34,104 nt of DNA. Origin: a virus. Lineage: Duplodnaviria > Caudoviricetes. Positions 5,601 through 24,411 of the stretch are shown in pieces (the first letter of the stretch is position 1; each line of letters begins with the position of its first letter). Under the pieces are notes generated by a model. It did no database searches, was not told the origin of the DNA, and worked only from the letters and a program-made list of their open reading frames with translations. The stretch is taken from positions 1-34,104 of IMG/VR virus record IMGVR_UViG_3300037991_000441; one strand, 5' to 3'. Made by a program: the position numbers and the translations under genes.

Positions 5601-6298
5601 TGACCAAAAGTATTTTCTAATTCTTTTGAAGAGGTAACTACATTTTCTAATTGAGCCCTTATTCCAGCCATCAGCATTTCATCGCCTTGACGTTTTGCTT
5701 GATTATATTTTGATGCAAGACTTATAAACTCTTCTTCAATCATTCTCATACTTGCAAGGTTTGATGTTTCTCGTAAACCAGCTTGTATATTTGCCTTACC
5801 TAATGTGAGAGTATCAATACCATCATTCTTAATAATATCTTTAAATTCTGCTGGTGAGTTATCTACTAATGTATCAACATACGCACCAAACACATTTGCA
5901 TATAATTCATCACCACCAGCAACATCTTTATATTTAAGAGCTAATTCTTTATGCTTTACCTCAATATCTTTTTGAATACTCCGCATAAATTTTTTATTAG
6001 CTAAAGTTTTGAATGACCTTCGTGCATTTGCTCCTAAGTCTTGAAACTCTTTTGTATCGTATGCTTCAAAATCACCATCAGCATTTAGTGTGTAGAACTT
6101 TTCCATAGGCATTGTTCTTGCAGCTTTTTCACCAGCTTCAGTTGATGCCAACTTCATTTCTTGCAATGCTATATTACTAAGCTTTTCAGCTTCTGCTGCT
6201 ACACCAAGAAGCGATTGCTCCACAGCATTAGTACGTTGAATAACTCCTATAGGTTTGTTATTGAATGTAAGTTTTTGTTGTTTTAAATTTATAACCAT
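2651..6298 (-). CDS. Internal virion (ejection) protein, T7 gp15-position, 1215 aa
   Basis: Long charged helical ORF between the gp14-like and gp16-like genes, coupled to both neighbours by overlapping stop/start codons. Confidence 0.7.
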   Translation of the reverse strand: MVINLKQQKLTFNNKPIGVIQRTNAVEQSLLGVAAEAEKLSNIALQEMKLASTEAGEKAARTMPMEKFYTLNADGDFEAYDTKEFQDLGANARRSFKTLANKKFMRSIQKDIEVKHKELALKYKDVAGGDELYANVFGAYVDTLVDNSPAEFKDIIKNDGIDTLTLGKANIQAGLRETSNLASMRMIEEEFISLASKYNQAKRQGDEMLMAGIRAQLENVVTSSKELENTFGQARVKGLAQSYSRKIANLDLSSTVAKLYSEEGLSKLDVDNMHGYLLSGGTYIGENLQSNPEQLADLNDILNSTEGWQMDSLVALSTKYKELTKQIITSSQPSSSSKRQETNEILSIVNTDIEGLRNIPYSSETVNALEKKFEQLSTDNNDAFNSEKLLQKKGYLAKTATIRLAKEVKRIKDSNGDILPSGAWEAITLYLQDGDERNLRSYIDIGGNSVDFDEPTRKKVIEFFNKVASTNVLSEDNIGQIRTAVANYSNTRKLEESRIEANVQKKENELKIQGKREELLKYELEKGVIEDELFEVRTDEDVTDAVKTIDDFIKRFSNWATESGAKNVGTIVNADRARLEQVLGKQINKLVAGEVAKSVALEPNQIEEQGIFVLNAKKSTDLKNFLSYVRNPNEELKSKIKPEYLAAYEKYYERDDLQLEPVRTDLETSISQLIALTISEQSGRQEALNEANDMNNIIKGTLKRDEKASRLVDNILFEALVKYNDENNLGLIDKDKTIEENMKGFYFSEESLKKNPVTDLMYKLIGEGYLPHQFVDGYNMMGGAEESVLKAMDTHRINLESQPSANGRKVSYIGYKGTNKFAGNYGFKSINDSFKELRTINHILRFRAGGNQQAFNLLDNEGIGMPTERTATMVQYDAPYSDLLNSYSQITNEQMNDAFKILKKQLNIKTLYSPTEANREIIIKDLINSTEIFGPAKDNKAALSLFQPPQEIIDIAEHFWSVAAMDAELRNDKSGLKQYYSQFKTMLTEYMETNYMESDGNVLDFSNMHTLSTTHTRLHPAIHLGEAKYLAMVDYVNDRLPPNMVFDFNAVQTDEFLKKYKFSRQTLPTDEVYAQINTLPTQFKRRYAKELKAGKDISEKIFKERLKEEAKKEGIDKVVLVAYETANANEIIYQAMRVTANETLTPVIVTNTKGDALPFVFSLGSLAAAFDKDGVYDNILREQLRPGVERREQIEQGLNETGTDALNRFYGLFVR

Positions 6299-6750
6299 TA
6301 TGCGTATGTCTTGTAATCATGAAATGCTTTTATACCAGATGATACTGCTCGTAAGTATAGATATTGTGCTTTTGCATCACCCTCTATTCTAACTTGTTCT
6401 GCTTGTCTTCTATATTTATCATCAGTAAATAAAGCTTGCCTATCTAATCGAACAATATCTTTACCTACAGTTTTTTCTTGTTTCTTTTGAAATGCTCTAA
6501 AGCTTCTATCAAGACCAATATCTCTAGTAGTTCCACCACCTAACAAAGCTTCATTCTTATTCACATCATCAAAATAAGCATCCATCCTATCATTATGCTT
6601 TTGTAAATACATAATCTCATTACGTTTTTTATCTTCTTCAATCTCTCTTGCTCGAGAGTCTGCTTGTTGTTTTGCTGCGTTTGCTGCCGATGCAGTTGCC
6701 ATAACTCCAATAAGAGAACTGGCTAATTGTAAAAATGGTAAAAATGGCAT
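6298..6750 (-). CDS. Internal virion protein, T7 gp14-like
   Basis: Hydrophobic N-terminus followed by an Ala/Gln-rich helix; lies directly after tail tubular protein B. Confidence 0.7.
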   Translation of the reverse strand: MPFLPFLQLASSLIGVMATASAANAAKQQADSRAREIEEDKKRNEIMYLQKHNDRMDAYFDDVNKNEALLGGGTTRDIGLDRSFRAFQKKQEKTVGKDIVRLDRQALFTDDKYRRQAEQVRIEGDAKAQYLYLRAVSSGIKAFHDYKTYA

Positions 6751-9955: not shown

Positions 9956-10768
9956 TTAATTATTATCTAAGACTTCATAGATACCATTGTCATCAATAAC
10001 AACAGCACCCATTGACATCATAGATGTTGCAAGATGAGATGCTTTCTCAGGGATATAGTTTATCTCTGTGGAAACATCAGAGTTTACGCCTAATCCTACA
10101 GCAGTAGTATGATAAGCCATATTCTTACCAGCAGTAATTGCAGAGGTAGAGAATATGTTGAAGCCTAGAAACTGCTTCATTGTCATACCACCAGCGAATG
10201 GTAGATTCTGCTCACCAACAAAGTCAGATGATGCAAACTCATTAATTAAGAATAAGTCTGCAAATCCCTTTGGGTGCATAGCAAGATAACGACCACCATC
10301 CTCAGGAATGTTTGCAGAACCAAAAGTTTCAAATAATGTAAGTAAGTCTGCTTTTTCAACAGCACTACTTGTATCATGTATTTGAGTTGAGTTAGCTCCA
10401 GCATCCATTGCTGTATACAGGATATCGTCAGTTTTTCGACCAAGAGCTGCTGCTGCTGACGTTGCAACTGCTTGTCTTTCGTCGATGTTAGTTTTGAGTT
10501 CATCTAGTTTGTCGATATATTCGGCAGCATAGAAATCACTCATGGTTGCTTCCACAGTTGTATGTGTTAGCTCCATAGGTGTTACCATACCATTTCTCGA
10601 TTTAGTAGATGCAGTACCAGTTCCAATCTTTTGAAAACGAACTACGTTTCCAGCTACATTGCCAACAGTACGCACAGTATTCCGTAGTTTAGAACCCATA
10701 CGCTGATATGCCATGTGAACATCAGACTCGAACTGTTTAATAAAGGCTGTATCAATTGTATTTGCCAT
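9956..10768 (-). CDS. Major capsid protein
   Basis: MANTIDTAFIKQFESDVHMAYQRMGSKLRNTVR...AAALGRKTD, typical of podoviral capsids; GGAG SD present. Confidence 0.92.
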   Translation of the reverse strand: MANTIDTAFIKQFESDVHMAYQRMGSKLRNTVRTVGNVAGNVVRFQKIGTGTASTKSRNGMVTPMELTHTTVEATMSDFYAAEYIDKLDELKTNIDERQAVATSAAAALGRKTDDILYTAMDAGANSTQIHDTSSAVEKADLLTLFETFGSANIPEDGGRYLAMHPKGFADLFLINEFASSDFVGEQNLPFAGGMTMKQFLGFNIFSTSAITAGKNMAYHTTAVGLGVNSDVSTEINYIPEKASHLATSMMSMGAVVIDDNGIYEVLDNN

Positions 10769-10849
10769 TATTCAGCTCCATTGTTAAGTTTCAATTACGT
10801 CGCTGATTGTCCGTTTTGCACCTCAACATGATTGTCCACAAGGGGTCAC

Positions 10850-11371
10850 TTAGTGCATAGTGGGTCTTGACTTACTAATTCTTTGCTCAAAATTATCCAA
10901 ATTGCAATAGAAAAGTTTAATGAAGGGTGTAGAATTAAAGTAATATGGGTCATCTTCTTTAGAAAATCCCATAGATTCTAACCATTTTATTGTTTTTATT
11001 TGGTCTTCTGGTACATAGTTTTCTACAAAATCGTAGTCTATTTTTAGAAAAGACAGTATAAGTTTGCTGTGTTTAAAGATAAATAACCAATGTTTATCTA
11101 TCATATCTGTGCCAAGAAACCATATTTTACCCACATGCATCATCTCATCAAGAGGTGTTACACCGCACATTGCAATGGGTTTACCCTTATGCGTAATAGT
11201 AAAACCTTTAGCACCATCTTCAAGAAATGGAACAGCAAGTGCCATCTCTGGAGATGCACCAACTAATGCACATTCTCGAACATCAGAAAGTCTTAGTTTA
11301 TCAACAAGGTGGTCTACATCAGAAAGTTTACATGGTCTGAACTCAAACTGTCCTTTCTGAATGTATGTCAT
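10850..11371 (-). CDS. GNAT-fold protein, T7 gp13-like
   Basis: LRLSDVREC...PIAMCGV...GKIWFLGT...NYV...IKWLESMGF motifs. Confidence 0.75.
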   Translation of the reverse strand: MTYIQKGQFEFRPCKLSDVDHLVDKLRLSDVRECALVGASPEMALAVPFLEDGAKGFTITHKGKPIAMCGVTPLDEMMHVGKIWFLGTDMIDKHWLFIFKHSKLILSFLKIDYDFVENYVPEDQIKTIKWLESMGFSKEDDPYYFNSTPFIKLFYCNLDNFEQRISKSRPTMH

Positions 11372-12165
11372 TTATTAAATAGTTTTTGAAAACCTTCTTC
11401 TACTTGACGAACATAGTTTGGGTCACGCTTTGTCATGCTCCAATATCTTTCGTCTTTCATCATCTCTCTTAGTCCAGCTTCATTTTGCTGACCAGTAGGT
11501 GCAGCATCACCAATAGACTGGCTACCTTTCAAAGCATTAATAACAGTTTCCATAGCCTTAACACCTTCGGCTGTTGAACATAATGTTGCAATCTCAGCAT
11601 GTTGTTCTGGTGTAAAGAACTTATTCGACCATAGTTCTACTGCTTGTACTCTTTCTTTTGCATTATCACCAAGTGTTTTCATTTCTGCTTCTGGGTCAGT
11701 TGAGCCAATGTTCATTGCTTTTTTATACATTTCAATGCCTTCAGCAAACTCATCTTGGCTATATCCATTTTCAAATGACTGGTCAGCCCACCACTCAAGC
11801 AACTCATTACTTCTTGCTAACTCATCATCAATACCTTCTGGTAATATATAATCACCTTTCTTTTCAGGTCTGTCTTTATATGCTTCTGCTTCCAAGTCTT
11901 TCATTACTTGTGACTTTATATCATCTTCTTTCTGACTTAACTTACCTTCAAGTTGAGAGTAAGAGTTTGCCATATCTTCTGCTGATTTAAACTTCTCAGG
12001 CAACCACGCTGGTCTTTCTCCCATAGATTCAACACTCTGTTCCTCTGTTGGTGCTGATTCACTTGTAGGGGTTGTAGGGGTTGTAGGGGTATTATTTGTT
12101 TCTATTTGTTGTCCGACTGTTGTTTCACGTGAAACATTTTCTTCTGTTGTTTGGTCTTCACTCAT
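11368..12165 (-). CDS. Capsid assembly (scaffold) protein
   Basis: Acidic, with ERPAWLPEKF...MANSYSQLE and a C-terminal D.RYW...DP.Y motif; lies between portal and capsid. Confidence 0.85.
   Translation of the reverse strand: MSEDQTTEENVSRETTVGQQIETNNTPTTPTTPTSESAPTEEQSVESMGERPAWLPEKFKSAEDMANSYSQLEGKLSQKEDDIKSQVMKDLEAEAYKDRPEKKGDYILPEGIDDELARSNELLEWWADQSFENGYSQDEFAEGIEMYKKAMNIGSTDPEAEMKTLGDNAKERVQAVELWSNKFFTPEQHAEIATLCSTAEGVKAMETVINALKGSQSIGDAAPTGQQNEAGLREMMKDERYWSMTKRDPNYVRQVEEGFQKLFNK
12063..12089. repeat. 9-bp tandem repeat (TTGTAGGGG)x3 encoding TPT repeats
   Basis: Seen directly, in the low-complexity scaffold N-terminus. Confidence 0.85.
12121..12136. promoter_or_regulatory. parS: parS centromere-like site (perfect consensus)
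   Basis: TGTTTCACGTGAAACA: a 16/16 palindrome identical to the chromosomal ParB-binding consensus; encodes NVSRET in the scaffold. Confidence 0.85.
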
Positions 12166-12166
12166 T

Positions 12167-12451
12167 TCAATCCTCTCTTGCTACTTTATCACCATGTGCT
12201 ATTCGTCTTTCAATAACACCTACAATAAACCTCGAACCTTCTGCATGTCTTAAAACTTCATCAGTTACTGCTGAACCATGAACTGCTTCAATGGTTATAC
12301 TGCGTAAATATTTCAGCACCTCTTTACCAACTGGTGAGTTAAATAAAGCATGCATGTTAAGGCTTATAGTATCCTCATCATCTTTGCTTCTTGGGAATCC
12401 ATCAAATCTACTTGAAATTGCTTTTGTTTCATTCTGCAGCGATTTGTTCAT
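12167..12451 (-). CDS. Small conserved head-module protein (BPP-1 Bbp19-like), 94 aa
   Basis: Start reassigned to ATG 12451 (GGAGG SD). Motif F.SP.G.EVLKYLRSITIE...LRH.EG.R.IV; lies between portal and scaffold. Confidence 0.75.
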   Translation of the reverse strand: MNKSLQNETKAISSRFDGFPRSKDDEDTISLNMHALFNSPVGKEVLKYLRSITIEAVHGSAVTDEVLRHAEGSRFIVGVIERRIAHGDKVARED

Positions 12452-14027
12452 TTGGTGCTTCCTCCATTCCTTGACCCATAGCTTGTTGTGGTTGTTGCAT
12501 TTGTTGTTGTGCCATCTGTTGAGCAGCAGCAACTATCTGTTGTCGTTCAGCAACATCTCTTATTAGCGTGTCAGGAACACCAAACTTCTTAGCTAGATGT
12601 GCAGCAGTCTGTTCACTATTAACCAAAAGATTAACTACTTGTGGACCAAATGCTCCTCCAACTAATTCCAACCATCTTGCTATAGCAGATATATCTGAGT
12701 TTGCTTGTGCCTGTGCTAATGGTGATATTGATTTAACTTTTATTTGTCTGCCATTTAATGTTGGCAGTTCTATGCGACCTTGTTTCTTAAGTATATGTAC
12801 CACTCGAGCTAAAACTGGCTGTACCATTTCAGCTTGTAATCTTCCAAAAGCAGAACCCATACGTCTACTTAAGTCTGCCATTCTTTCTGCAACTTCAGTT
12901 GCACTAGCTGGTGTTCTATCTGGATTACCAAGCATATCATTATACAATGCTTTCTTAATATTATTACGCATGTCACTCAAAATAAAATTGGTAAAGTTCA
13001 AATCACCAGCTTGTCGAATAGGTTGTAGTCCTTGTGAGTTTGGTGCTTTGGGTATAACAGTCCCTGGCACAAGATTGATTGTATCTGGATTGATAACACC
13101 ATCATCATCCATTTGATATATACCAGCTATTGCCATAGCAGCATTCTCAAGAATATCTTTTACTGTGAGATTAGTAGTCTTGATTGCACTTAATGCATTG
13201 AATAATGGACCTCTTCCATATACCTCACCAGAACATGTATTCCATCTAAAACATATATATGGATTACTACCAGTACCACTTAATGCTTCTGATTTAAGAA
13301 CTGTCTTTGTTGCTGTTTCAATACATACATATAAAAAAGCATCTTCATTTAACTTTGAATAATCTTTACAAACAACTTCTAATAGTTTTGTTTTTTGGTC
13401 TGGACTAGCCATCATTGAATTTTGCAACTCTTGTGGCAACTCAATATCAGGAAATAAAATATGTAAATCAGAATATCGAACACTTCTTTCTCTATATACA
13501 TGGTCAATATTATCATTCGGACCAACATCAAGAACTACATGCGGTAATGGTATAGCAGAAAAAGTAATTGGATTAACAGCATCCCCTTCAGAAACATAAA
13601 GCACACCAGTACCAACAGCCAAGTCCATAAATGATTCATGAACCTCTTGTGAAAAGTTTGAGTTCTGTAGTATCTCAAAAACAAACTCAGTTATTTCTTC
13701 AAGCTGATTGTTGATTGCATCTCGTTCTGATTCTGGTATTTCTGAGCCAGCAGTAAAATCAGCCCAACGAGCAAAGTTGGGGACAAGTCCTTGTTGGAGT
13801 CTTGATGCAAATTCTTGTACTCCAACGACAGCAGTTTCATCAAATATCTTTTCATCTCTACGTTCTCCTATGGTCTTAGACTTAAATGTTTCTCGCATAG
13901 GCATAGTAAATTCATAACAATCATCATATACATCTTCAAAGTGTTGACGAATAGCTTTCGCCTTTTCAAACTTTTCCATATAATATTGAGCTAATGCTTT
14001 TGGTTCTGTTGGCATACCAATATGCAT
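12429..14027 (-). CDS. Portal (head-tail connector) protein
   Basis: IFDETAV...FASRLQ, DLAVGTG, RW...GEVYGRGP and SATEV.ER motifs of T7 gp8-family portals. Confidence 0.95.
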   Translation of the reverse strand: MHIGMPTEPKALAQYYMEKFEKAKAIRQHFEDVYDDCYEFTMPMRETFKSKTIGERRDEKIFDETAVVGVQEFASRLQQGLVPNFARWADFTAGSEIPESERDAINNQLEEITEFVFEILQNSNFSQEVHESFMDLAVGTGVLYVSEGDAVNPITFSAIPLPHVVLDVGPNDNIDHVYRERSVRYSDLHILFPDIELPQELQNSMMASPDQKTKLLEVVCKDYSKLNEDAFLYVCIETATKTVLKSEALSGTGSNPYICFRWNTCSGEVYGRGPLFNALSAIKTTNLTVKDILENAAMAIAGIYQMDDDGVINPDTINLVPGTVIPKAPNSQGLQPIRQAGDLNFTNFILSDMRNNIKKALYNDMLGNPDRTPASATEVAERMADLSRRMGSAFGRLQAEMVQPVLARVVHILKKQGRIELPTLNGRQIKVKSISPLAQAQANSDISAIARWLELVGGAFGPQVVNLLVNSEQTAAHLAKKFGVPDTLIRDVAERQQIVAAAQQMAQQQMQQPQQAMGQGMEEAPNEQIAAE

Positions 14028-14028
14028 A

Positions 14029-14322
14029 TTAGTACCTTCTCAATCCTGTAGGTGTTTGCTCTCTACCCTGTGAAAGAAAACCAGACCCCCCTGGGCTGCT
14101 TGTAAATAATGAACCTCGACCAACTCTTCTTCTAAAGACTGTTCCTCCAGTATCGTAAAATAAACTTGTTTTGACTGGTGCAGACGTTTCTACTTCTTTC
14201 TCAAGAGCTTCTTGTCTGTTTTTTATTTTTACTTCTTCTTCTTCTTTTTTTGCTTGTCTAGTTTCTTCCTTAACCTCTTGTCTAGGTTCAGGAGTTCTAC
14301 TACCACCACCACCAAAACACAT
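14029..14322 (-). CDS. Small virion protein, T7 gp7.3-position
   Basis: MCFGGGG N-terminus; immediately upstream of portal; GGAGG SD. Confidence 0.65.
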   Translation of the reverse strand: MCFGGGGSRTPEPRQEVKEETRQAKKEEEEVKIKNRQEALEKEVETSAPVKTSLFYDTGGTVFRRRVGRGSLFTSSPGGSGFLSQGREQTPTGLRRY

Positions 14323-14324
14323 GT

Positions 14325-15851
14325 TTACCTCCTTAAATCATTTCCAAAAAAGGTTCTAGTTCTACTAATACTAGGTCTTTTAAATAAATCAAAGCCTTTT
14401 CTTGCATTGAAAGCTCCTAAAGGTTTCTGTCCAGCCATCAAACTTCGCCCTTCTCCAGCACCTAACATCAAGTATTGCAAAGCATCATGAATATGAGAAT
14501 ACATATTTTTCTCAGGTTTATCTTCATATCTTTCTCCAGATACTTGCATTCTTCTATAGCAGTAGCCACCTTGAAATCCTTTGATAATCTGAGGACATCT
14601 TCTATCTATTAACAATCCAGATTTACCATCTACCATCTTAGTAAGTTGTGAAGAAACAGATTCAAGTCTTAAGTCTATGCTGTTGCTAGGAGCTGGCGTT
14701 GCTTTTAATCCAGCACCTCGCAATATTCCAAATGGTGTTGTTTCATCTGTCTGAGCTCTAAAGTCACCAGCTGGGTCACCATAAATATACACATCAAGAT
14801 TATTAAATCGTGTAGCAATTTCTTGTCTAAGAAGTTCAGCAAAACGAACTATACCCATATCAATAGCTACAATCTCTGACTGTAGTAACCACCGACCTCG
14901 AACTTTCTGTCCAAACACAGCAGAAGGAGTAAGACCAAAATCAATTCCAATATAAAGAGGTACACCAGCAGCAATAGGTATTTCCTCTTCTGCAATATGT
15001 GTATCACTTACAAAGTCTGGATAAACTGGTTTACCATCTTGAATCATGCCAAGCCTATTCATAACATACACATCTATCCAACTTTTTGTTTTACCTCTTA
15101 CAATATTTGGATAATACGTTTGTAATATGTTCTTACTGTTTTCTGCTTTAGAGGTTGGGGAATAGGATAATACTTCGCCCTTTTCTCCTAAGTTTTCTTT
15201 CATCGCTGCTGGTTGTGTATAGAAAGTCCAGTTATCAGGTTTGACTAACATGGTCGCTTGCTCTCTAGGTATGTGGTCTGGTATCGGAACTTCACCTGAC
15301 ATGATAGCCCACCAATGGTCTTCTTCTGGTGCATTGGTATCACAGATAACACCTGACCAACTAGACCCACCCTCTCTCATACTTGGATATCGACCAACAC
15401 GCATAGTACACGCATCAATAATACTTTTAGGAATTTCTCTTGCTTCGTTTACCCAGATACCAGTTAGTTCCAATGACAATAACTTCTTCACATCTTCTGG
15501 TCTATCTAATGCCAAAAAAATTACTTCAAGGTCTAAATCATTCATCTGTATGTGATGTGTATAAGGAACAGACCAATGAAACTTTCCCCACTCATTCTCT
15601 GGAAACCAATCCAGCCAAGTCTTTATAGTTGTCGTTCTTAATTGTGGGTTTGTATTTCTTATGATAGCCCAACGAGATTTACGAATCCCCTCATGATTTT
15701 GATTCTGCTCAAGAGCCCTTCTGAATACCTCAACACAACACGCAACTGATTTACCAGAACCAACTGGACCTCTGATACCACGAAAAAAATTATTGTCCTT
15801 CATAAATTGCTTGAGGACTTCTCCGTCAGGCTTGTAATTAAAGTTTATCAA
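14325..15851 (-). CDS. terL: Terminase large subunit
   Basis: Walker A GPVGSGKS, Walker B-like IWVNEARE, coupling motif DTN, RNase H-like nuclease GIDFG...SHIHDALQY. Confidence 0.96.
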   Translation of the reverse strand: MINFNYKPDGEVLKQFMKDNNFFRGIRGPVGSGKSVACCVEVFRRALEQNQNHEGIRKSRWAIIRNTNPQLRTTTIKTWLDWFPENEWGKFHWSVPYTHHIQMNDLDLEVIFLALDRPEDVKKLLSLELTGIWVNEAREIPKSIIDACTMRVGRYPSMREGGSSWSGVICDTNAPEEDHWWAIMSGEVPIPDHIPREQATMLVKPDNWTFYTQPAAMKENLGEKGEVLSYSPTSKAENSKNILQTYYPNIVRGKTKSWIDVYVMNRLGMIQDGKPVYPDFVSDTHIAEEEIPIAAGVPLYIGIDFGLTPSAVFGQKVRGRWLLQSEIVAIDMGIVRFAELLRQEIATRFNNLDVYIYGDPAGDFRAQTDETTPFGILRGAGLKATPAPSNSIDLRLESVSSQLTKMVDGKSGLLIDRRCPQIIKGFQGGYCYRRMQVSGERYEDKPEKNMYSHIHDALQYLMLGAGEGRSLMAGQKPLGAFNARKGFDLFKRPSISRTRTFFGNDLRR

Positions 15852-16032
15852 TGTTGTAGTTTCTTCCGACTTCTTTGAGTCTTTCTAAGGTGTGGGGGAG
15901 AAGGGAAGCTATTCGTTTATCTGCTTCGTAATCAGTGATAAATTCTTTTGGAAAATGTTTTAGATGAACTTGCTTAATAACAATACGCAGTAAGTTCCTT
16001 GTTTCTTTATCTAGTTTATGTTCGTGATACAT
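15838..16032 (-). CDS. Hypothetical protein
   Basis: 64 aa; overlaps both neighbours within the operon. Confidence 0.65.
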   Translation of the reverse strand: MYHEHKLDKETRNLLRIVIKQVHLKHFPKEFITDYEADKRIASLLPHTLERLKEVGRNYNIDKL

Positions 16033-16280
16033 CAGCTAAACTTTCTATGTGACGCTGTTTTTTTTGCAATCTTCTTTGGTTGTTTGGAAACTTGTTTACC
16101 TTTACGCATGGCTGCTCTTTTCTTTCGAGTTGTTGCTCGATACTCTTCATCCGTTAAAGATTTTATTGCTGACTCTGGTAAATACCTCTCCCCAGTTTTG
16201 AGAGAGGGTTTACCAGACTTGGTTCGCCACTTCTGTCTTGTCCATGCTCGTAGGCTTCTCTGACTCTTTGCTAAAGCCAT
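16032..16280 (-). CDS. Small basic protein (SQRSL..WT.QKWRTKSGKPS...GERYLP family)
   Basis: 82 aa, K/R-rich, coupled by TGATG overlaps. Confidence 0.8.
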   Translation of the reverse strand: MALAKSQRSLRAWTRQKWRTKSGKPSLKTGERYLPESAIKSLTDEEYRATTRKKRAAMRKGKQVSKQPKKIAKKTASHRKFS

Positions 16281-16444
16281 CAGCGATATCCACCACCTTT
16301 AGCTTTATATTGCTTGGCTAACATCTGTGCCTTTCGTGCAGACCATTGCCCTGGTCTTCCACCTTTACCACTAGCCTTGATTCTGCGAAAGAGTGCAGCT
16401 CTCATCTTTGGCTGTGTATAGTTTCCAGCTGCGTTAACTGCCAT
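16280..16444 (-). CDS. Small basic protein, 54 aa (GQWSARKAQ family)
   Basis: Below the ORF-track cutoff. MAVNAAGNYTQPKMRAALFRRIKASGKGGRPGQWSARKAQMLAKQYKAKGGGYR; stop/start overlaps at both ends. Confidence 0.8.
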   Translation of the reverse strand: MAVNAAGNYTQPKMRAALFRRIKASGKGGRPGQWSARKAQMLAKQYKAKGGGYR

Positions 16445-16581
16445 TACTTCTTCTTCTTTTTAGAAGCCATAATTTTTGATTGCAGTTGTTTAGGAAGAGT
16501 CTTCTGCTTTGCAGTCAAACCATTCTTCTTCGCTGGTGGTCTTCCTCTTTTACTTCCGTAAGTTCCTTTTCCCATAGGCAT
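16444..16581 (-). CDS. Small basic protein, 45 aa, with an AT-hook-like KRGRP motif
   Basis: MPMGKGTYGSKRGRPPAKKNGLTAKQKTLPKQLQSKIMASKKKKK; AAGGA SD; TAATG overlap with the next gene. Confidence 0.75.
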   Translation of the reverse strand: MPMGKGTYGSKRGRPPAKKNGLTAKQKTLPKQLQSKIMASKKKKK

Positions 16582-16585
16582 GATG

Positions 16586-16891
16586 TTATCCTTTCTTTTT
16601 CTTGGCTTTATTTCTTCGTGAGATTGCTGCTGCCTTTCGTTTTGCGTCGGCTTTGCTTGATGCTCCCCACGCTCTTAGGCTGAGAAGAAGTCTTGTTGGT
16701 CTGCCCTTTGAGTCCCTTTCCGGTCCTCGCATTCCCCCCATTCTTGCTAGGAAGCTTGCTCTTCTTGGGTTGTCCCCTGACTTTACTGGAGCTTTTAGAG
16801 TTCCTCCCTTGTAGCTTGCTCGACCTTTTGCGTTCAAGCCGCCCTTCGGATTCTTCCCTTCTTTCCTTGTCCAAGCTGGAGTTCTCGCCAT
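16586..16891 (-). CDS. Small basic protein (KNPKGGLNAKGR...RRASF.ARM family)
   Basis: 101 aa, AAGGAG SD, K/R/G-rich. Confidence 0.8.
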   Translation of the reverse strand: MARTPAWTRKEGKNPKGGLNAKGRASYKGGTLKAPVKSGDNPRRASFLARMGGMRGPERDSKGRPTRLLLSLRAWGASSKADAKRKAAAISRRNKAKKKKG

Positions 16892-17083
16892 TTCTTCTCC
16901 TTCTCAATATATTAGACATTAACACAGCAACACGCATAATCAATCCCTTTAAGTTAGTAAATATTTTCATCGAGCTTTTTTCTCCATAAATGTTAGTATA
17001 CTATCCCTTGCTCGTGCCAAACACTGGTTTTTGACCCCCCATGTGTTTGTCACAGCTCTAGTTCAGCAGACTGCCCTAGCTTT

Positions 17084-17461
17084 TCACGTGAGGTCTATGC
17101 TAACTTTGATGTTTCCTGCCACACTATGCATGACCTTATCTACTGCTTTGTATCCAGCCCTATCTAGTAAATCTTTACTTGCTTCCAATTGCACATACTC
17201 TGATTTAGCATTGCTACTTAGCTTCACTATACTCTGTAGTGCTTTCGTAGCATTCAGTCCTATATTCTCAGCTATTGTACTCATCATATACTGTTGCACA
17301 TGTGGTAGCTTCAAAGTCTTGCTAGCAGTAACTCTGCCAGCTTCACCTTCACTATATCCAGCATCTTTACTTGCATCTTTTATACTACATCCTTTTGCTA
17401 CTAACGTATCAACCAACTTCTTCTGCTTTGCAGTAAGCTTGTTACTTGTAAGTTCACTCAT
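17084..17461 (-). CDS. terS: Terminase small subunit (putative)
   Basis: N-terminal HTH LTAKQKKLV...ASKDAGYS...ASKTLKLPHV and C-terminal ASKDLLDRAG; first gene of the late unit. Confidence 0.85.
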   Translation of the reverse strand: MSELTSNKLTAKQKKLVDTLVAKGCSIKDASKDAGYSEGEAGRVTASKTLKLPHVQQYMMSTIAENIGLNATKALQSIVKLSSNAKSEYVQLEASKDLLDRAGYKAVDKVMHSVAGNIKVSIDLT

Positions 17462-17779: not shown

Positions 17780-18196
17780 ATGTCAAATACTAAACTACAA
17801 GAAGCTTACGGAACAATCATTGATTTCTACAAAGATACATATCAAAGAGAATACGTAGCAAACAAACTACTTGAAAATGTCAACTACTCTATCACTAAGT
17901 CAAAAGAAAACTTGGACAAGAAACAAACAGAATGGTTGAACGAGTATGAGAACTGTGAACATACAGGACAATCAACTGACAAGCTTGGACAACTAGAAAG
18001 AGTTTGCCATCAGTACATACCTCAAAACCTTGAGAATCTTACTGAAACAAAGACTGCTATTGAAAAAGCAATGGCATCTCTTGGCATCAACCAAAAGGTC
18101 ACGAAAACTCTTGATAATCATATCGACCCAAGAAAGCTTATCAACCAGCGACCTGACCCAGCAAACAAGCAGAAGTCAACAAAGGTTGTCGTTTAG
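17780..18196 (+). CDS. Hypothetical coiled-coil protein, first early gene, 138 aa
   Basis: Start reassigned to ATG 17780 (AAAGGA SD); MSNTKLQEAY... Confidence 0.75.
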   Translation: MSNTKLQEAYGTIIDFYKDTYQREYVANKLLENVNYSITKSKENLDKKQTEWLNEYENCEHTGQSTDKLGQLERVCHQYIPQNLENLTETKTAIEKAMASLGINQKVTKTLDNHIDPRKLINQRPDPANKQKSTKVVV

Positions 18197-18202
18197 ACAG
18201 CC

Positions 18203-18233
18203 TTACTTCCTGAGCATGAAGTAAAACTGCTCA
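18203..18233 (+). ncRNA. Compact H-type pseudoknot
   Basis: TTACTTC-C-TGAGCA-T-GAAGTAA-AAC-TGCTCA: two interleaved perfect stems. Confidence 0.6.
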
Positions 18234-18241
18234 ATCTGGGA

Positions 18242-18295
18242 CGCGAAAAAACAAACGCTGGCATACACTTTGTGCCAGCTTATTATTTTTTCGCG
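18242..18295 (+). terminator. Extended hairpin / intrinsic terminator
   Basis: GCTGGCA...TGCCAGC followed by TTATTATTTTTT, enclosed by CGCGAAAAAA/TTTTTTCGCG. Confidence 0.6.
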
Positions 18296-18506
18296 GTTAT
18301 CTGCGTGCTAGTCGCACGTAAATTTACTTGGTTATCTAGTTTGCTACGCAAACGAAATCATACTTGGTCAAGCTGAAGCACGTCACAAACCCTTCAAGGT
18401 GGGGTGGGAATGACGAGAAAGTGGAGTTCAAGTTTGAAACTATGTGGCTGTAACTTACACAAGTTTTTGTAGAGATTCAGTCGCTGAAAATTTATAGGAG
18501 AACACA

Positions 18507-18593
18507 ATGATTTTTGAACTAACAATTGGATTTATTCTAGCTTACGCAGTTGGAATGATTTTCTTTCAATGGATACTGTGGAGGAATCAATGA
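18507..18593 (+). CDS. 28-aa single-TM peptide
   Basis: AGGAG SD; MIFELTIGFILAYAVGMIFFQWILWRNQ. Confidence 0.7.
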   Translation: MIFELTIGFILAYAVGMIFFQWILWRNQ

Positions 18594-18664
18594 ACACATT
18601 AGAAGACATTGTTGGAGTCGTATTTATATTCGCAGGTTTAACTGTATTACTAATGATAACATAG
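18590..18664 (+). CDS. 24-aa single-TM peptide
   Basis: GGAGG SD, ATGA overlap; MNTLEDIVGVVFIFAGLTVLLMIT. Confidence 0.7.
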   Translation: MNTLEDIVGVVFIFAGLTVLLMIT

Positions 18665-18673
18665 GAGAAAGTA

Positions 18674-18952
18674 ATGGAACAGAATCAAGTATTCAAATTG
18701 AATGATGATGAAGTGTTTATCTTAGATAGAAGTCAAAGCAAACGTATTGCACAGCTAAAGATAGACAGAAACATAGAGATATATTCAGCAGTCAAAGGCA
18801 AGTACAAAGTTGTAGAATGGGAACATCAGTATTGTAATCGAAAGTACTTTGATAGTCTATCTGATGCTATTCAATACTGTATGGATATCAAAAGAATTTA
18901 TGACAGAACCAAACTAAAGTACAGTCATAAATATGGTGGAGTAAGTATGTAG
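18674..18952 (+). CDS. Hypothetical protein
   Basis: 92 aa, AGGAG SD. Confidence 0.75.
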   Translation: MEQNQVFKLNDDEVFILDRSQSKRIAQLKIDRNIEIYSAVKGKYKVVEWEHQYCNRKYFDSLSDAIQYCMDIKRIYDRTKLKYSHKYGGVSM

Positions 18953-18984
18953 GTAAATAACTAATGTATTAATTTACCTACGAG

Positions 18985-19013
18985 TTGCAGAGCATAATAA
19001 TTTATAGTAAACT
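18985..19013 (+). promoter_or_regulatory. Putative sigma70 promoter TTGCAG-N17-TAAACT
   Basis: Intergenic with a 17-bp spacer; preceded by the inverted repeat GTAGGTAAAT...ATTTACCTAC. Confidence 0.5.
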
Positions 19014-19030
19014 AAACATGGAGAAAGCAA

Positions 19031-19321
19031 ATGTTCGGAAGACAATATCCTATTTGGAATAAAGTAACGGCTTGTATCTACAAGAGTGATAAAAGCTATG
19101 GCGTAAAGAATACTGGTGAAGTTGAAGTTCGAGTTGGCACATCGAACAGCAACAGTCATCACTTCGTAACACATGTAACAACAGTTCGTACTCATAATAA
19201 TGGTGACAAAGAGTTTCGATTTTATTTGAATCGTCAACTGTTGAAGTGTGCAATTCTTCCCAAAGGTAAGTATCAGTTAGAGTTTAGGGAAGTTCAATCA
19301 ATCCAAGATAATTATATATAA
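19031..19321 (+). CDS. Hypothetical protein
   Basis: 96 aa, GGAGAAAGCA SD. Confidence 0.8.
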   Translation: MFGRQYPIWNKVTACIYKSDKSYGVKNTGEVEVRVGTSNSNSHHFVTHVTTVRTHNNGDKEFRFYLNRQLLKCAILPKGKYQLEFREVQSIQDNYI

Positions 19322-19331
19322 GGAGTAAATC

Positions 19332-19724
19332 ATGGACATCAAACTAAAATCAGGTGCATCAGCAATCAATGAAAGGTTCAGCAATCAAAGAGATAAAATT
19401 GCTGAACATATCCAACGCTTCGGAAGTATCTCAGCCAGAGATGCATTCTATCACTATGGTTGTATGCGACTCGCTGCACAAATATTAATACTCAAACAAA
19501 ATGGCTGGAACATTGTAACTACAATGCGACAAGTTGGAAATGTAACCTGGGCAGAGTATTGGCTAGAAGAAAGATTCAGAAGAGAACACAAGCAAGCTAC
19601 TGACTTCAACCTAGCTAACAGTGGTGAAGATATGCCATTACCAAAAGCTTTCTTCAAGCAAGAAAGAGAACACTATGAAAATATCAGTAACGACCCATAC
19701 GAGTGGGCAGAGGAGGGACACTAA
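19332..19724 (+). CDS. Winged helix-turn-helix protein (HTH_39-like)
   Basis: GSISARDA...YGCMRLAAQI..LK..GWNI.T...AEY.L pattern. Confidence 0.75.
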   Translation: MDIKLKSGASAINERFSNQRDKIAEHIQRFGSISARDAFYHYGCMRLAAQILILKQNGWNIVTTMRQVGNVTWAEYWLEERFRREHKQATDFNLANSGEDMPLPKAFFKQEREHYENISNDPYEWAEEGH

Positions 19725-19725
19725 C

Positions 19726-20004
19726 ATGACCAGTAGATTGGAAGATGTATTACGCAAAGACTATGAACGCTATCGTGACATGGCAAAAGATGAGGTACGA
19801 TTCCCAAACTTCATGAATCGACAGAAGTTTCAGAACGTAGCTGATGCCATTGAACGTATTGTAGATTGCTTTGACTTTGTAGATGATGTTCGCAATGAAG
19901 AGAATCTACCAGATGTAAATGTATCAAAGCTAACTGGTCGACATTATTCTGCTGAAGAAGATGCAATCAATCTTCAACATAATAAACACTATGGAGAAAA
20001 GTAA
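19726..20004 (+). CDS. Hypothetical protein, 92 aa
   Basis: Start reassigned to ATG 19726 (GGAGG SD); MTSRLEDV... Confidence 0.7.
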   Translation: MTSRLEDVLRKDYERYRDMAKDEVRFPNFMNRQKFQNVADAIERIVDCFDFVDDVRNEENLPDVNVSKLTGRHYSAEEDAINLQHNKHYGEK

Positions 20005-20249
20005 TGGTAGTAAAAATAAGATACCAAGACTTACCAGAAAATTTGAAACAAGAAAAGAGGTGGAATGTAAGAATGACTAATGCAATCAATGACAGAATCA
20101 AAGATACTATCAACGATAAACTAGACGATATGAAAGTATCTGAGTTACAATCAATGGTTGAAACACTTGGAATGAACTCAATAGTTCTTGATGAGTTCTT
20201 GCGAGATGTTGCAGCAAAAATGTATGAGAAGTTAGAAACTCATATATAA
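20004..20249 (+). CDS. Hypothetical protein
   Basis: 81 aa, TAATG overlap, GGAG SD. Confidence 0.7.
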   Translation: MVVKIRYQDLPENLKQEKRWNVRMTNAINDRIKDTINDKLDDMKVSELQSMVETLGMNSIVLDEFLRDVAAKMYEKLETHI

Positions 20250-20277
20250 AAAAATGGGTGGCTCAAAAGGCCACCCA
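20248..20277 (-). terminator. Intrinsic terminator oriented for minus-strand transcripts
   Basis: TGGGTGGC/GCCACCCA stem preceded by A7, which reads as T7 on the minus strand. Confidence 0.6.
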
Positions 20278-20297
20278 GTTACTATAAGGAATATAAT

Positions 20298-20687
20298 ATG
20301 ATTACTAAAAACCAGATTAGAATATTATCAGGATTATACTTTTTGATAAAGGAAAAAGAACAACGAATAGTATTATCTCATCACTTACAAAAACAAATGC
20401 CTGATATGAAACAAGGAACATTGTCAACAACCTTGCAAGCTCTCGAGCATAAGCTAGGATTAATAATATCAATGCCTTGTGATGCTGTATTGAGAAGCTT
20501 GTATGCAAATCAAAAAGCACCAAGCACTACAAGAAGATATTACATTACCAAAAGTGGTAACAAATTAGTCAATATGTATTTGCAAATCGTAAAACGAGAT
20601 GGTAATAATGTAGACTATGAAAAGTTATCTTCAGCAGCTTACGCAGTTATCAGAACACCAGAACGTAGACTTACGCAAGGCTTTTAG
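20298..20687 (+). CDS. Winged-helix DNA-binding protein (MarR/PadR-like)
   Basis: GTLSTTLQALEHKLGLI...RRYYITKSG pattern. Confidence 0.65.
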   Translation: MITKNQIRILSGLYFLIKEKEQRIVLSHHLQKQMPDMKQGTLSTTLQALEHKLGLIISMPCDAVLRSLYANQKAPSTTRRYYITKSGNKLVNMYLQIVKRDGNNVDYEKLSSAAYAVIRTPERRLTQGF

Positions 20688-20808
20688 TTGGGCTGGATTA
20701 TCAAAGACAACATACTATAGACAGCTTAAGGGAACGGAGTTAAGATTTGAAACTGCTATCAAAATTGAAAAGGCTATTGAACAACTTGCCACGCTTCAAA
20801 AAAAATAA
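20617..20808 (+). CDS. Cro/XRE-like HTH protein
   Basis: LRKAFSWAGLSKTTYYR...LRFETAIKI. Confidence 0.7.
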   Translation: MKSYLQQLTQLSEHQNVDLRKAFSWAGLSKTTYYRQLKGTELRFETAIKIEKAIEQLATLQKK

Positions 20809-20977
20809 AGGTTTCGAACAAAGAGCATCAGTAACTTGTGATGCATGCAATCAAGATACGCAATACTTCGTTGTCTCTGCTTATAAAAATACAAAGATAT
20901 GTATGAAATGCTATGAGGAGGACACATGGTTAGCAAAAGTAAAGCAAAAGGAAGCTATCACGAAAGGTGGTTTCTAA
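20747..20977 (+). CDS. Small zinc-finger protein (start uncertain)
   Basis: CDAC...CMKC; fills the gap between the HTH and resolvase genes. Confidence 0.5.
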   Translation: MKLLSKLKRLLNNLPRFKKNKGFEQRASVTCDACNQDTQYFVVSAYKNTKICMKCYEEDTWLAKVKQKEAITKGGF

Positions 20978-21261
20978 AATTATTTAATAGTTTAGGTATA
21001 CGTACAAAGAAACAACCACTATCGGGCAGTTTAGGTGGTGAGTACAGAGGGGATTTGACTGTTGATATCGGTGGCAAAAGCTTAATAGTTGAAGTCAAGT
21101 ACAGAGATAGCAGTCAATTCCCTAATGTATTTAATTTACTAGAAGACAAAGACCTTGCTCTATGTAAACGCAAGAAGGGCTCTCCAAGATACTGCGTCAT
21201 TATAAAAGATGAAGTATGGGAAGATGTCTTTGCGTGTCTTATAGAGCATTATGATAATTAA
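20926..21261 (+). CDS. Holliday junction resolvase-like PD-(D/E)XK nuclease
   Basis: SKAKG..HER...PLSG...GDL...VEVK motif. Confidence 0.85.
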   Translation: MVSKSKAKGSYHERWFLKLFNSLGIRTKKQPLSGSLGGEYRGDLTVDIGGKSLIVEVKYRDSSQFPNVFNLLEDKDLALCKRKKGSPRYCVIIKDEVWEDVFACLIEHYDN

Positions 21262-21276
21262 CAAAAGGAGTTCAAT

Positions 21277-21708
21277 ATGACAAATGTAACACAACAACTT
21301 ATTTCTTATATCCAAATGATAAACGAACATCAAGAGCTCACGAAGGAGCAATCAAAGTTTATGTTTGGTGTTATGGGTACATCAAATACAACACCAGTTT
21401 GTACTGGCAAACAGCTATGGTTTATCCAAGACCAAGCTAACAAAGCATGGTATGGATTCATCAAAGCCAATCACATAGCAGAACACTCAGGGTTTGATAT
21501 TACTATTGTTGATAATCTCAAACAAATACTTGAGTTATCTTGTGAAATGAAAATGCCTATCCCTAAAAAGGAAGCACAAAAAATAATTGAACGGCTGCTT
21601 GAGTTCAATGAAACACGATTACCGGAGTTGATGAAACTTATCGAGCAACACATACAACTAAAACTAAAGGAGTACGCAGAGCATGACAAAAAATCAACCA
21701 AAAAATAA
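21277..21708 (+). CDS. Hypothetical protein
   Basis: 143 aa, AAGGAG SD; T.KQL.FI...KKEA..II..L motif. Confidence 0.75.
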   Translation: MTNVTQQLISYIQMINEHQELTKEQSKFMFGVMGTSNTTPVCTGKQLWFIQDQANKAWYGFIKANHIAEHSGFDITIVDNLKQILELSCEMKMPIPKKEAQKIIERLLEFNETRLPELMKLIEQHIQLKLKEYAEHDKKSTKK

Positions 21709-22189
21709 TATTGTATCCCTCAATCCAGTAGCTGCAAGACAAAATCTTCTTGCATTTGCATCACCAGTCAGAGCAAACCTCAGGCTGGTGTGGGAACTCG
21801 ATGAACTTGGATTCAAATTCAAAGGACGTATGATTGATAACATATTGGAGATACCAAGACCTACGCTTCAAGAAGCATTGGAGATAGTAGACAAGTACCT
21901 TGTTCCAATGCAACTAGAAGATATCAGGAATCGTCTTGAGAAATGGAAGTATCTTTTTCACAAACCATTTGATTCCAAAATAGAAGAGGTTCAACTAAAA
22001 ACAAATGCGTATGAAGATTTGCTAGCCAAAATGCCAGCAGATTGTACGCACTATGCTTTGAATACTGCGATGCGAAAGTTCAAAATATTCCCAGCATACT
22101 TTGAGTTGTACTCGCTTATAAAAGAGCAGTATGAAATCCGAATGTATTACCAAGAATCTATTGAGAATAAACTTCTAAATAGTAGTTGA
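21683..22189 (+). CDS. Putative replication accessory protein (helicase loader/inhibitor-like helical domain)
   Basis: Y...L..MP......AL........FP...EL pattern; the function is inferred only. Confidence 0.45.
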   Translation: MTKNQPKNNIVSLNPVAARQNLLAFASPVRANLRLVWELDELGFKFKGRMIDNILEIPRPTLQEALEIVDKYLVPMQLEDIRNRLEKWKYLFHKPFDSKIEEVQLKTNAYEDLLAKMPADCTHYALNTAMRKFKIFPAYFELYSLIKEQYEIRMYYQESIENKLLNSS

Positions 22190-22214
22190 CTGGTTGCACA
22201 GTCGGAACTAGAAT
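22186..22214 (+). promoter_or_regulatory. Putative sigma70 promoter TTGACT-N17-TAGAAT
   Basis: Near-consensus hexamers upstream of the exonuclease gene. Confidence 0.65.
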
Positions 22215-22239
22215 GTCCATATAAATAAGGAGAAAGCAC

Positions 22240-23130
22240 ATGGATAGAACTACATTCATTGGCGGTAGTGATGCCGTCAGATTAGTAAATGGTGATTGGG
22301 AAAATCTCTACCTCGAGAAGATTGGAGAGAAGCAACCTGATGACCTATCAGATAATTTACAAGTACAGATTGGTATTGCTACAGAGCAACTCAATGTTGA
22401 GTGGTTTGTCAAACATCACAGCAGTAATCTTAATATGAATATGATTGAGAGAAACAAAAGACTTGGAGTCTATATGATAGACCATGTTCCTTGTGCTGCA
22501 AATCTTGATGGCTTGATTACACAGCATCAAGACAAGAGAGAATGGATTCTTGAATGCAAACACACAAATCCATTTACATCTATCAAAGATGTTATTGAAA
22601 GGTACATGCCACAAGTACAATTCTATATGCACTTGCACAGACACAGAATGAAAATGATTCCAATACGGAATAGATACAACTGCTGTGGTGCATTCATATC
22701 AATCATTCAAAGTAATGGGAGCAAGTATCATCAGTCCCATATTGAGTACGATGAATTGTATGCAGAAAAGATTATGTCCCTGGTCAAAAAGTTTTGGCTC
22801 AACCATGTAGTACCAAAAGTAAAACCTACTAACGATGGGATTGAAGACCCACCAGAGGTCAACTCAATCCCAATCGACAGAAAGGTTCAGCGTTGTATGA
22901 GTTCAAGTAATGAGTTTACCAATGATACACATGATTACATCAAGACAATGGAAGTAGCACACAAACATGAAGAAGCTAAGAAGAGATTGCTTAGTCATGT
23001 TACTGATGATGTCTATGAAATGTTCAATGACTATCTTGTCATATCAGTATCAAAGACTGGTAGACGTACAATCAAACTTAGGAAAGCAATTCAGCTTGCC
23101 TATGATATAATGAGTGGAGAAAAGAAATGA
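22240..23130 (+). CDS. YqaJ/lambda-exonuclease-like recombination nuclease
   Basis: R..FIGGSD, ANLDG, LECK and Y..QVQFYM motifs. Confidence 0.92.
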   Translation: MDRTTFIGGSDAVRLVNGDWENLYLEKIGEKQPDDLSDNLQVQIGIATEQLNVEWFVKHHSSNLNMNMIERNKRLGVYMIDHVPCAANLDGLITQHQDKREWILECKHTNPFTSIKDVIERYMPQVQFYMHLHRHRMKMIPIRNRYNCCGAFISIIQSNGSKYHQSHIEYDELYAEKIMSLVKKFWLNHVVPKVKPTNDGIEDPPEVNSIPIDRKVQRCMSSSNEFTNDTHDYIKTMEVAHKHEEAKKRLLSHVTDDVYEMFNDYLVISVSKTGRRTIKLRKAIQLAYDIMSGEKK

Positions 23131-23570
23131 CAAAAGAAAATATATACACAGCACTTATGAAGTGTGAATTCAAGAAAGTAAAAGTTGAGGGTAACAATGC
23201 AATGTTCAATGCCAAGTACATGAAAGTAAAAGATATTATACCTATGATTGAACTAGAGTTACAAAAGCAAAACATCATTTGCATTGGTACTATGAAAGTG
23301 AATGAACACAATTCACCAATACTCAATATACAGTTGCGACACATACCAAGCGATACATTCATCGAGAGTGAGTGTACTTGCTTAGACGATACTAAGAAAG
23401 GCAGTCAACAAATTGGTAGTGGCATTACCTACATGACACGATACATTTTACAACGGCTGCTTAACTTAGTGCCAGATGAAAGCACAGATGATGATGGCAA
23501 TGAATCTAGCAAGTCTGGTACATTTCAGAAACCAAGAAAAGTAATTAGAAAGGATAACTATGGAATATGA
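23127..23570 (+). CDS. erf: ERF-family single-strand annealing protein
   Basis: Q.IGSGITY.TRY.L...L.L....DDDG signature. Confidence 0.9.
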   Translation: MTKENIYTALMKCEFKKVKVEGNNAMFNAKYMKVKDIIPMIELELQKQNIICIGTMKVNEHNSPILNIQLRHIPSDTFIESECTCLDDTKKGSQQIGSGITYMTRYILQRLLNLVPDESTDDDGNESSKSGTFQKPRKVIRKDNYGI

Positions 23571-23928
23571 TAACACAAATACTGGTGCAGTTTTTCAACC
23601 GAATGGTGAAGAGCTAAGTGGTACTGGAACACTTAATGACAAGGGCAATGAGAATAGAATTGCTGTTGTCAAAGCATCATCAAAAGATGGTTCTACTGTC
23701 AGAGATATATACTTGAAGATTGGTAGAATGTGGGAGAACGATAGCCAAAATGGTATGGCACCACAGTTTACTGGTCAGATTGATTTACCATCTGACAATA
23801 GTCGAGTTGCTGCTTGGGTCAAGCAAGGCTCATACGGTACTATGCTATCTCTTAAGCTATCACCAAAGCTTGAACAAGAACAATCATCTGTTGACAATGA
23901 CCTTGAATCAGATGATATTCCATTTTAG
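23560..23928 (+). CDS. Single-stranded DNA-binding protein (putative)
   Basis: MEYDNTN.G..F start, acidic C-terminal DDIPF tail; follows exonuclease and ERF. Confidence 0.75.
   Translation: MEYDNTNTGAVFQPNGEELSGTGTLNDKGNENRIAVVKASSKDGSTVRDIYLKIGRMWENDSQNGMAPQFTGQIDLPSDNSRVAAWVKQGSYGTMLSLKLSPKLEQEQSSVDNDLESDDIPF
23891..23919 (+). promoter_or_regulatory. Putative internal promoter TTGACA-N17-GATATT for the candidate sRNA
   Basis: Perfect -35 inside the 3' end of the SSB gene; the predicted start falls at the first hairpin. Confidence 0.5.
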
Positions 23929-24003
23929 GACGTGCTTTCTCCAAAGAAGTCCTAAAACATGCTAGGGGGTCTAATACTGCTCTGCTTGCCTGACCTCCTA
24001 GCA
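23923..24003 (+). ncRNA. Candidate anti-Shine-Dalgarno small RNA with two hairpins
   Basis: TTTTAGGAC-[GTGCTTTCTCCAAAGAA]-GTCCTAAAA, then TGCTAGGGGGTC-[20 nt]-GACCTCCTAGCA with a G.U pair on the + strand. Confidence 0.6.
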
Positions 24004-24022
24004 GATAAAGAAAGCACAGAAT

Positions 24023-24235
24023 ATGATTACAAAAATGACACACACAGTTATTCTCATGCTTACCATCGACCTAGAGTCAGCAAGAGAATGCCAACGACTC
24101 AGCGAAAAAGTATACAATGAGAATAGATGCTTTGAAGCATACAATATTTACAGCACCATACCACCTCGCAAGCCAGATAACTTCGAGAACATCATTGGTT
24201 TATATATAGAAAGGAAAAAACTATGGGAGAAATAG
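24023..24235 (+). CDS. Hypothetical protein
   Basis: 70 aa; overlaps the next gene. Confidence 0.6.
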   Translation: MITKMTHTVILMLTIDLESARECQRLSEKVYNENRCFEAYNIYSTIPPRKPDNFENIIGLYIERKKLWEK

Positions 24236-24411
24236 ATAAATGGAAATATGTGGTTTGGGTAGGTTCTACACCTGACTACTACACCAACTTCAAAGATGCC
24301 AAAAGAGCATACGATGAATGGGTAGATGAAGGCTATGATGATGTTCAGCTTTTAAAAGGGACTGTAGTTTTCCATAGATGTAACAACCAGAGTTCATCTG
24401 GACCATCATAG
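24223..24411 (+). CDS. Hypothetical protein (Y.VWVG..DYY...GYDDV)
   Basis: 62 aa, AAGGA SD; last early gene. Confidence 0.65.
   Translation: MGEIDKWKYVVWVGSTPDYYTNFKDAKRAYDEWVDEGYDDVQLLKGTVVFHRCNNQSSSGPS

Follow-up and report, generated by a model that had tools for sequence, protein, structure and literature searches.

A single host-type parS site in the scaffolding gene of marine podophages, most likely under selection for binding by host ParB

Genome organisation of the phage

The window analysed here, that is the whole 34,104-nt stretch of IMG/VR record IMGVR_UViG_3300037991_000441, represents a complete marine podophage with a T7-like head-tail module and genes for RecE, Erf and SSB (Table 1). 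The ends of the window (1-1643 and 32462-34104) repeat 1,643 bp at 96% identity, the mark of two variants assembled together, and this repeat implies a circular genome of ~32.5 kb. Besides the genes tabulated, the early region gave weak leads to HTH proteins and a candidate for a lambda-P-like loader. PHROGs and Pfam recognised no DNA polymerase, helicase or primase among the 46 ORFs, and a lineage-specific 138-aa early protein had no usable Atlas match. Between the gp13-like and capsid genes lies a non-coding element on the minus strand (10770-10870) with two GGAYA motifs, kept in the six relatives viewed and lacking an Rfam match; it may serve as a promoter for late genes or as an RNA element.

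Among isolates, Pelagibacter phage EXVC031P Hodr (OQ414635.1) is the closest, matched at 64% in terminase, 56% in portal, 54% in capsid and 36% in scaffold. Both phages have the same size and gene order, including the T7-like portal-scaffold-capsid-tail arrangement, and neither has a recognised DNA polymerase, which places the present phage among the Hodr-like marine podophages. Hodr differs in belonging to a separate clade (the capsid tree being a quick version) and in its GC content of 33% as against ~36%.

Table 1. Features of the phage window relevant to the parS site
Feature	Position	Strand	Basis or remark
Consensus host-type parS palindrome, single copy	12121..12136		Exact match, uniqueness in record, Markov models
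T7-like capsid scaffolding protein gene, 265 aa, with low-complexity E/T/Q/N-rich N-terminus carrying the site	11368..12165	-	PF05396, E 6.6e-10
21-nt in-frame segment, scaffold codons 7-13, carrying most of the site, absent in sister species	12127..12147	-	DNA alignments
T7 gp13-like gene (phrog_308)	10850..11371	-	3' end without parS variant in this phage
Major capsid protein gene, ~1.35 kb downstream of the site, family marker	9956..10768	-	54% to Hodr
Genes for portal protein and for large and small terminase, upstream of the site within its late operon	12429..17461	-	PHROGs/Pfam
Early/replication region: wHTH, RusA-like resolvase, RecE/YqaJ, Erf, SSB	17780..24411	+	PHROGs/Pfam

A consensus parS site in a phage without par genes

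The sequence at 12121-12136, TGTTTCACGTGAAACA, matches consensus parS without a mismatch and is identical to the 16-mer used in PMC7383237. It is the sole match at ≤2 mismatches in the whole record, and on the minus strand it runs from the last base of N10 through T15 (NVSRET) across scaffold codons 10-15. The earlier note had described a perfect host-type parS site read as NVSRET in the scaffold gene and not expected by chance in 34 kb, and both statements hold: Markov models of order 0-3 predict ~1e-5 exact copies in the window. The 16-mer is also the longest perfect palindrome there, the runners-up being two of 12 bp. Among the rows listed, contigs from four runs of other studies carry the site without difference and vary at flanking positions.

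As a predicted target of ParB, the site shares its 16-bp consensus with the chromosomal parS/ParB-CTP complex (PMC7383237), from which it differs in genomic setting: chromosomal parS lies near oriC or the parAB operon, whereas the present site lies in a phage late operon, near neither of them, and is thus not classed as a chromosomal centromere. Capture of a host origin fragment was ruled out by the flanks, which are scaffold sequence with no par genes nearby, and an RNA hairpin was rejected on an RNA fold z of 0.58. A scan for promoters and terminators near the site gave no signal above chance.

The absence of a recognisable par gene or integrase, also claimed from the sequence earlier, was borne out by a six-frame profile search of the phage, with no ParB_N, AAA_31 or Phage_integrase match at E≤1, and by PHROGs and Pfam annotation, with no ParA, ParB or integrase among the 46 ORFs. 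ParA and ParB were over the cut-off in 0/42 family records, and ParB likewise in 0/5 further records; the only trace was a below-cut-off ParB_N match in one site-less relative (G017, E 1e-3). No hidden phage ParB was found. No plasmid-type initiator or clear repressor was identified in the phage (best leads E 0.01-0.08, Atlas 0.85), PLSDB held no close relative of it (best terminase match 41%), and no tRNA-like att piece was found in the window.

Selection on the DNA of the site across the family

The peptide [VI][SP][RH]ET occurs in ORFs of family loci in 56 distinct contexts, all of which are parS-coded, against an expectation of ~0.3% from the codon use of this phage. A second lineage has a GC content of 47% and carries the site in the C-terminal linker of the scaffold protein in 28/28 covering loci (30 fetched). 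Its five site codons are invariant in 23 distinct genes, as opposed to 13 of 88 comparable four- to six-fold columns (P ~2e-4), and form the sole invariant run of this kind in the scaffold gene; at the protein level, four members of this C-linker lineage read ISRET or VLRET. Codon invariance was also found in the lineage with the site in the gp13-like gene (P ~3e-3) and in clade C (P ~2e-3). The phage's own lineage is too uniform for the synonymous test to be informative (P 0.26).

In the Hodr clade, 39 of 80 loci fetched with the Hodr capsid carry the site at ≤2 mismatches and 32 at ≤1, and 38 of these 39 sites fall in a 300-nt window making up 2% of bases (of the loci that span it, 38/65 are positive). 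Among 30 control palindromes, 24 had no match. Across 265 family loci, 63 carry the site at ≤1 mismatch and 57/60 control palindromes are without any match. All these counts, those of the peptide, the 47%-GC lineage and the Hodr clade included, are not frequencies, because they include redundant contigs and two lineages fetched for the peptide. Two-mismatch matches in early or other genes (G012, G013, G027, G261) were excluded as sites, G027 being kept in the two-mismatch contingency table. Further placements are the scaffold N-terminus of distant lineages, the space between genes near the portal and, once, a virion protein gene, and the 3' end of the gp13-like gene carries a CACATG variant of parS in two other lineages.

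The variants seen in phage sites (T5C, G9A and changes in the outer bases) recur beside parB in bacterial loci and small genomes, a comparison in which only the spectrum of variants is informative because the sites were pre-selected at ≤2 mismatches. As the DNA moves among parS variants, the peptide shifts between S and P and between R and H. A peptide that varies while its DNA follows parB-adjacent variants is the pattern of a DNA-binding site and not of a protein motif, and peptide constraint was rejected on codons that stay frozen while the peptide varies. In Hodr, the site lies at the same place in the scaffold gene, has two central mismatches and reads NVSNET; PMC4368675 reports weak binding of such central mismatches in Pseudomonas.

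Selection therefore acts on the DNA of the site, most likely for binding by host ParB, as judged from the parS-only codons, the codon-invariant second lineage, the sites at the same place in the Hodr clade and the parB-adjacent variants. A chance origin was rejected on the Markov expectation combined with codon conservation. The check that the earlier note had suggested in related phages, namely synonymous conservation or recurrence of the site in different genes, was thus passed at the level of the family.

Close relatives with and without the site

Among the best 80 IMG/VR scaffold loci, the eight at 97-100% identity all have the site, and the next 19 (72-87% identity, one of them without the N-terminus) have none at ≤3 mismatches. 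In DNA alignment, the difference between these sister species is the 21-nt in-frame segment of Table 1, and three site-less sister records (93, 96 and 100% complete) have no site anywhere in the record. The sister species are 72-87% identical to the site-bearing one in scaffold and 93-99% in capsid. Where the capsids are 96-99% identical, their ejection proteins are still only 26-27% and 58% identical, and two replication-region genes also differ strongly, the divergent regions of the window being 2651-6750, 17780-18196 and 21277-22189. These differences suggest that site-bearing and site-less sister species have different hosts. One contig (G003, loci L144 and L148) has site-bearing and site-less scaffold alleles at opposite ends and is likely a chimeric overlap of co-occurring sister phages.

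In a 39-row scaffold tree with the trait masked, carriers of the N-terminal site do not form one clade (p-AU 3e-11), and the allele of this phage is sister to a site-less allele. Gain or re-acquisition of the site by recombination would be the simpler reading of this topology; repeated loss may be the alternative, since the site occupies that position in the outgroup clade too. With the nearest sister species lacking it everywhere, the site is optional. The earlier note had named two outcomes in relatives that would tell against it, and they part ways here: the nearest sister species do lack the site entirely, but where a VSRET-type peptide is kept there is no free synonymous variation.

Outside the family, a T7-like cluster of capsid, tail and portal genes, with a capsid 45-50% identical to that of the phage, is found in many Micavibrio and Azospirillum chromosomes (L238-L314); none of these 77 loci carries the site at ≤1 mismatch.

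Integrases and hosts

Integrase genes were found in 4/27 near-complete relatives, all four without the site, and in 0/33 further family records. The apparent exclusion of site and integrase falls short of significance (one-sided P 0.17; 0.08 when the Hodr-clade set is included; records that are not independent), and 17/21 near-complete records without the site are also without an integrase. In whole-record searches of the family, each positive record had one site and never more.

Two integrase-bearing relatives carry att-like tRNA pieces. The first (G029), a site-less phage with a capsid 90% identical, has a 45-nt 3' half of tRNA-Asp (L517:3016-3060) with an exact match in 1/401 genomes; that genome (G435) has two parS sites ~3.4 kb from parB and an rsmG-parA-parB operon, and 20/25 genomes of its family have parS. 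The second (G016) has a 3' half read as tRNA-Val (L519:836-884), with matches in 0/401 and 0/25 genomes.

In a class-wide sample of Alphaproteobacteria, the motif was present in 158/201 genomes (157/200 without genome G071) against 2/201 for the control. Sampled chromosomes mostly hold one to three exact-arm parS sites, and ParB was found in 30/30 small genomes picked from the sample. In Pelagibacter, parA-parB is a conserved adjacency according to a preprint (10.64898/2026.04.03.716430). Host assignment through MAG labels was discarded as binning noise, the three closest carrying gammaproteobacterial, archaeal and alphaproteobacterial labels. It is plausible that the phage host is parABS-positive.

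Occurrence of parS in other viruses

Exact parS occurs in an estimated 5,700 IMG/VR viral stretches, compared with two for one reversed control. From 139 such loci (L001-L139), 68 were examined by their two longest ORFs, and in 34 of these 68 the surroundings are virion, packaging or lysis genes, so that half are plainly phage. In L009 and L039, we take the replication and virion genes to be of microvirus type. A literature search covering few subscription journals returned no report of parS in marine podophages and no survey of host-type parS in phages, and nothing on point for VSRET, Hodr or Pelagibacter parS.

Inferred function of the site

A lone consensus site suffices for the loading of ParB clamps, and ParB orthologs recognise parS in common. 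The host is very probably a parABS-positive alphaproteobacterium whose ParB binds the site. We posit, at a probability of roughly 0.45, that host ParB loaded on the site allows host ParA to partition unintegrated phage genomes to daughter cells. In this mechanism, the consensus parS in the scaffold gene, kept at the DNA level, would load host chromosomal ParB onto phage DNA, and host ParA would move unintegrated genomes to both daughters when lysis is delayed. As a weaker inference, the benefit might be that slow-growing marine cells pass the phage on while it is in a carrier or pseudolysogenic state; equally tentatively, placing the site ~5 kb away from the early region, in a late operon that is quiet, might let ParB spread without affecting early promoters. 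We prefer partition because it fits the sole tested precedent, requires no more than one site and is in keeping with the temperate members of the family; a single parS suffices for segregation in Pseudomonas (PMC4368675). Against it stand the sister species without the site, the many complete relatives lacking both site and integrase, the failure to identify a plasmid-type initiator, a clear repressor or a close relative in PLSDB, and decay of the site, as in the two central mismatches of Hodr and, judged from protein sequence, the ISRET and VLRET members of the C-linker lineage.

The evidence here fits uses in the lytic cycle and partition alike, and a lytic role is unlikely without being far-fetched. 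During replication, tens of phage copies could draw ParB off the host's one to three sites, stalling origin segregation and disturbing division in MipZ hosts, or ParB could hold the phage genomes at the nucleoid, close to the host replisome on which a polymerase-less phage depends. The absence of a recognised polymerase, helicase or primase, the low number of exact-arm sites in sampled chromosomes, and Hodr, isolated as a phage of HTCC1062 and without integrase, all agree with such uses. A high-copy plasmid with one consensus parS pulled ParB from oriC in B. subtilis and impaired origin separation, yet replication initiation was unchanged in the same study (PMC7614844), and in Caulobacter the MipZ gradient is set up by ParB complexes at the poles (PMC3355305). 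A sponge should, however, favour arrays, and family records have at most one site; nor does titration need a fixed placement in the head region.

That placement could instead have its own purpose, although we consider this improbable: ParB spreading between portal and capsid genes might damp late transcription or delay packaging and so defer lysis, or the site might load SMC, tidying concatemers before packaging. Independent placements do fall within ~1.7 kb upstream of the capsid gene, namely at the 5' end of the scaffold gene, in its linker, at the 3' end of the gp13-like gene and in the portal-proximal intergenic space; the site is present in 0/30 loci centred on the early exonuclease gene, and a terminase gene lies within 1.5 kb in 17/68 sampled IMG/VR parS loci. 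Part of the clustering, however, comes from the sampling, because most loci were retrieved with head genes and IMG/VR is biased towards hallmark genes, and tolerance of coding changes may just be greatest in the scaffold N-terminus, where codon preferences also match. Promoters next to a site are silenced as ParB spreads, but this required ParB in excess (PMC4368675), and the scan near the present site gave no promoter signal above chance.

It is very unlikely that the sequence is not a ParB site at all, but a chance or neutral relic, a peptide motif, an RNA hairpin or the operator of another protein. The scaffold N-terminus is rich in E, N, V, S and T with AT-rich codons, so that near-sites arise easily, NVSNET of Hodr being one, and most subfamily members are without the site. 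The Markov expectation, codons frozen under a variable peptide, the unremarkable RNA fold, recurrence in unrelated protein contexts and between genes, and the excess over the reversed control in IMG/VR all argue against it. Least credible is that the phage circle, once loaded with ParB clamps, resembles a chromosome or is shielded from SMC-type defences such as Wadjet: patchy presence among close relatives with differing ejection and replication genes fits host- or defence-specific selection, but enrichment across very different phages argues for a general host function.

Comparison with known systems

Host ParB borrowing by a phage is already known from Bacillus phage phi29, a precedent that the earlier note did not name, which has five parS sites and whose DNA is segregated into the prespore by host Spo0J (PMC2731898, citing earlier evidence). 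Phage partition as proposed here resembles phi29 and Nf in combining chromosomal-consensus parS, a phage without par genes and host ParB proposed to move unintegrated DNA. It differs in having one coding-embedded site and no sporulation, where phi29 has five sites, Spo0A boxes and a spore outcome, and phi29 is unrelated to the T7-like-head marine family. As the sole cultured member of that family infects a Gram-negative SAR11 strain, spore entrapment is presumably not a possible outcome. The site would thus work like those of phi29 but is not the same system. The novelty lies in a lone scaffold-embedded parS found across a marine family, one of whose members is a cultured SAR11 phage.

Phage-plasmids of the P1/N15 type have their own ParA, ParB and initiator and a system-specific centromere. 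Partition through the scaffold-gene site would likewise let a prophage be inherited without integration, but none of those three genes was found in this phage, and the 42 family records likewise gave no ParA or ParB over the cut-off.

Implications for the biology of the family

Extended to the family, the proposal is that a large, apparently lytic group of marine podophages, SAR11 phages among them, is inherited as host-partitioned, unintegrated episomes by way of a scaffold-gene centromere, which we regard as tentative and on balance doubtful. If true, the site would be a gene-free alternative to integration, swapping in and out between lineages, and would mark hidden carrier states in the commonest bacteria of the ocean. 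Pseudolysogeny in slow-growing marine bacteria is often invoked and has few sequence markers or mechanisms; a 16-bp site under codon-level selection offers a concrete handle on it, with plus/minus pairs of near-identical phages, graded natural variants and Hodr on HTCC1062 as available material. The finding indicates that the strategy of phi29 is independent of sporulation and perhaps common among phages, and it bears on how lytic and temperate lifestyles are called from gene content.
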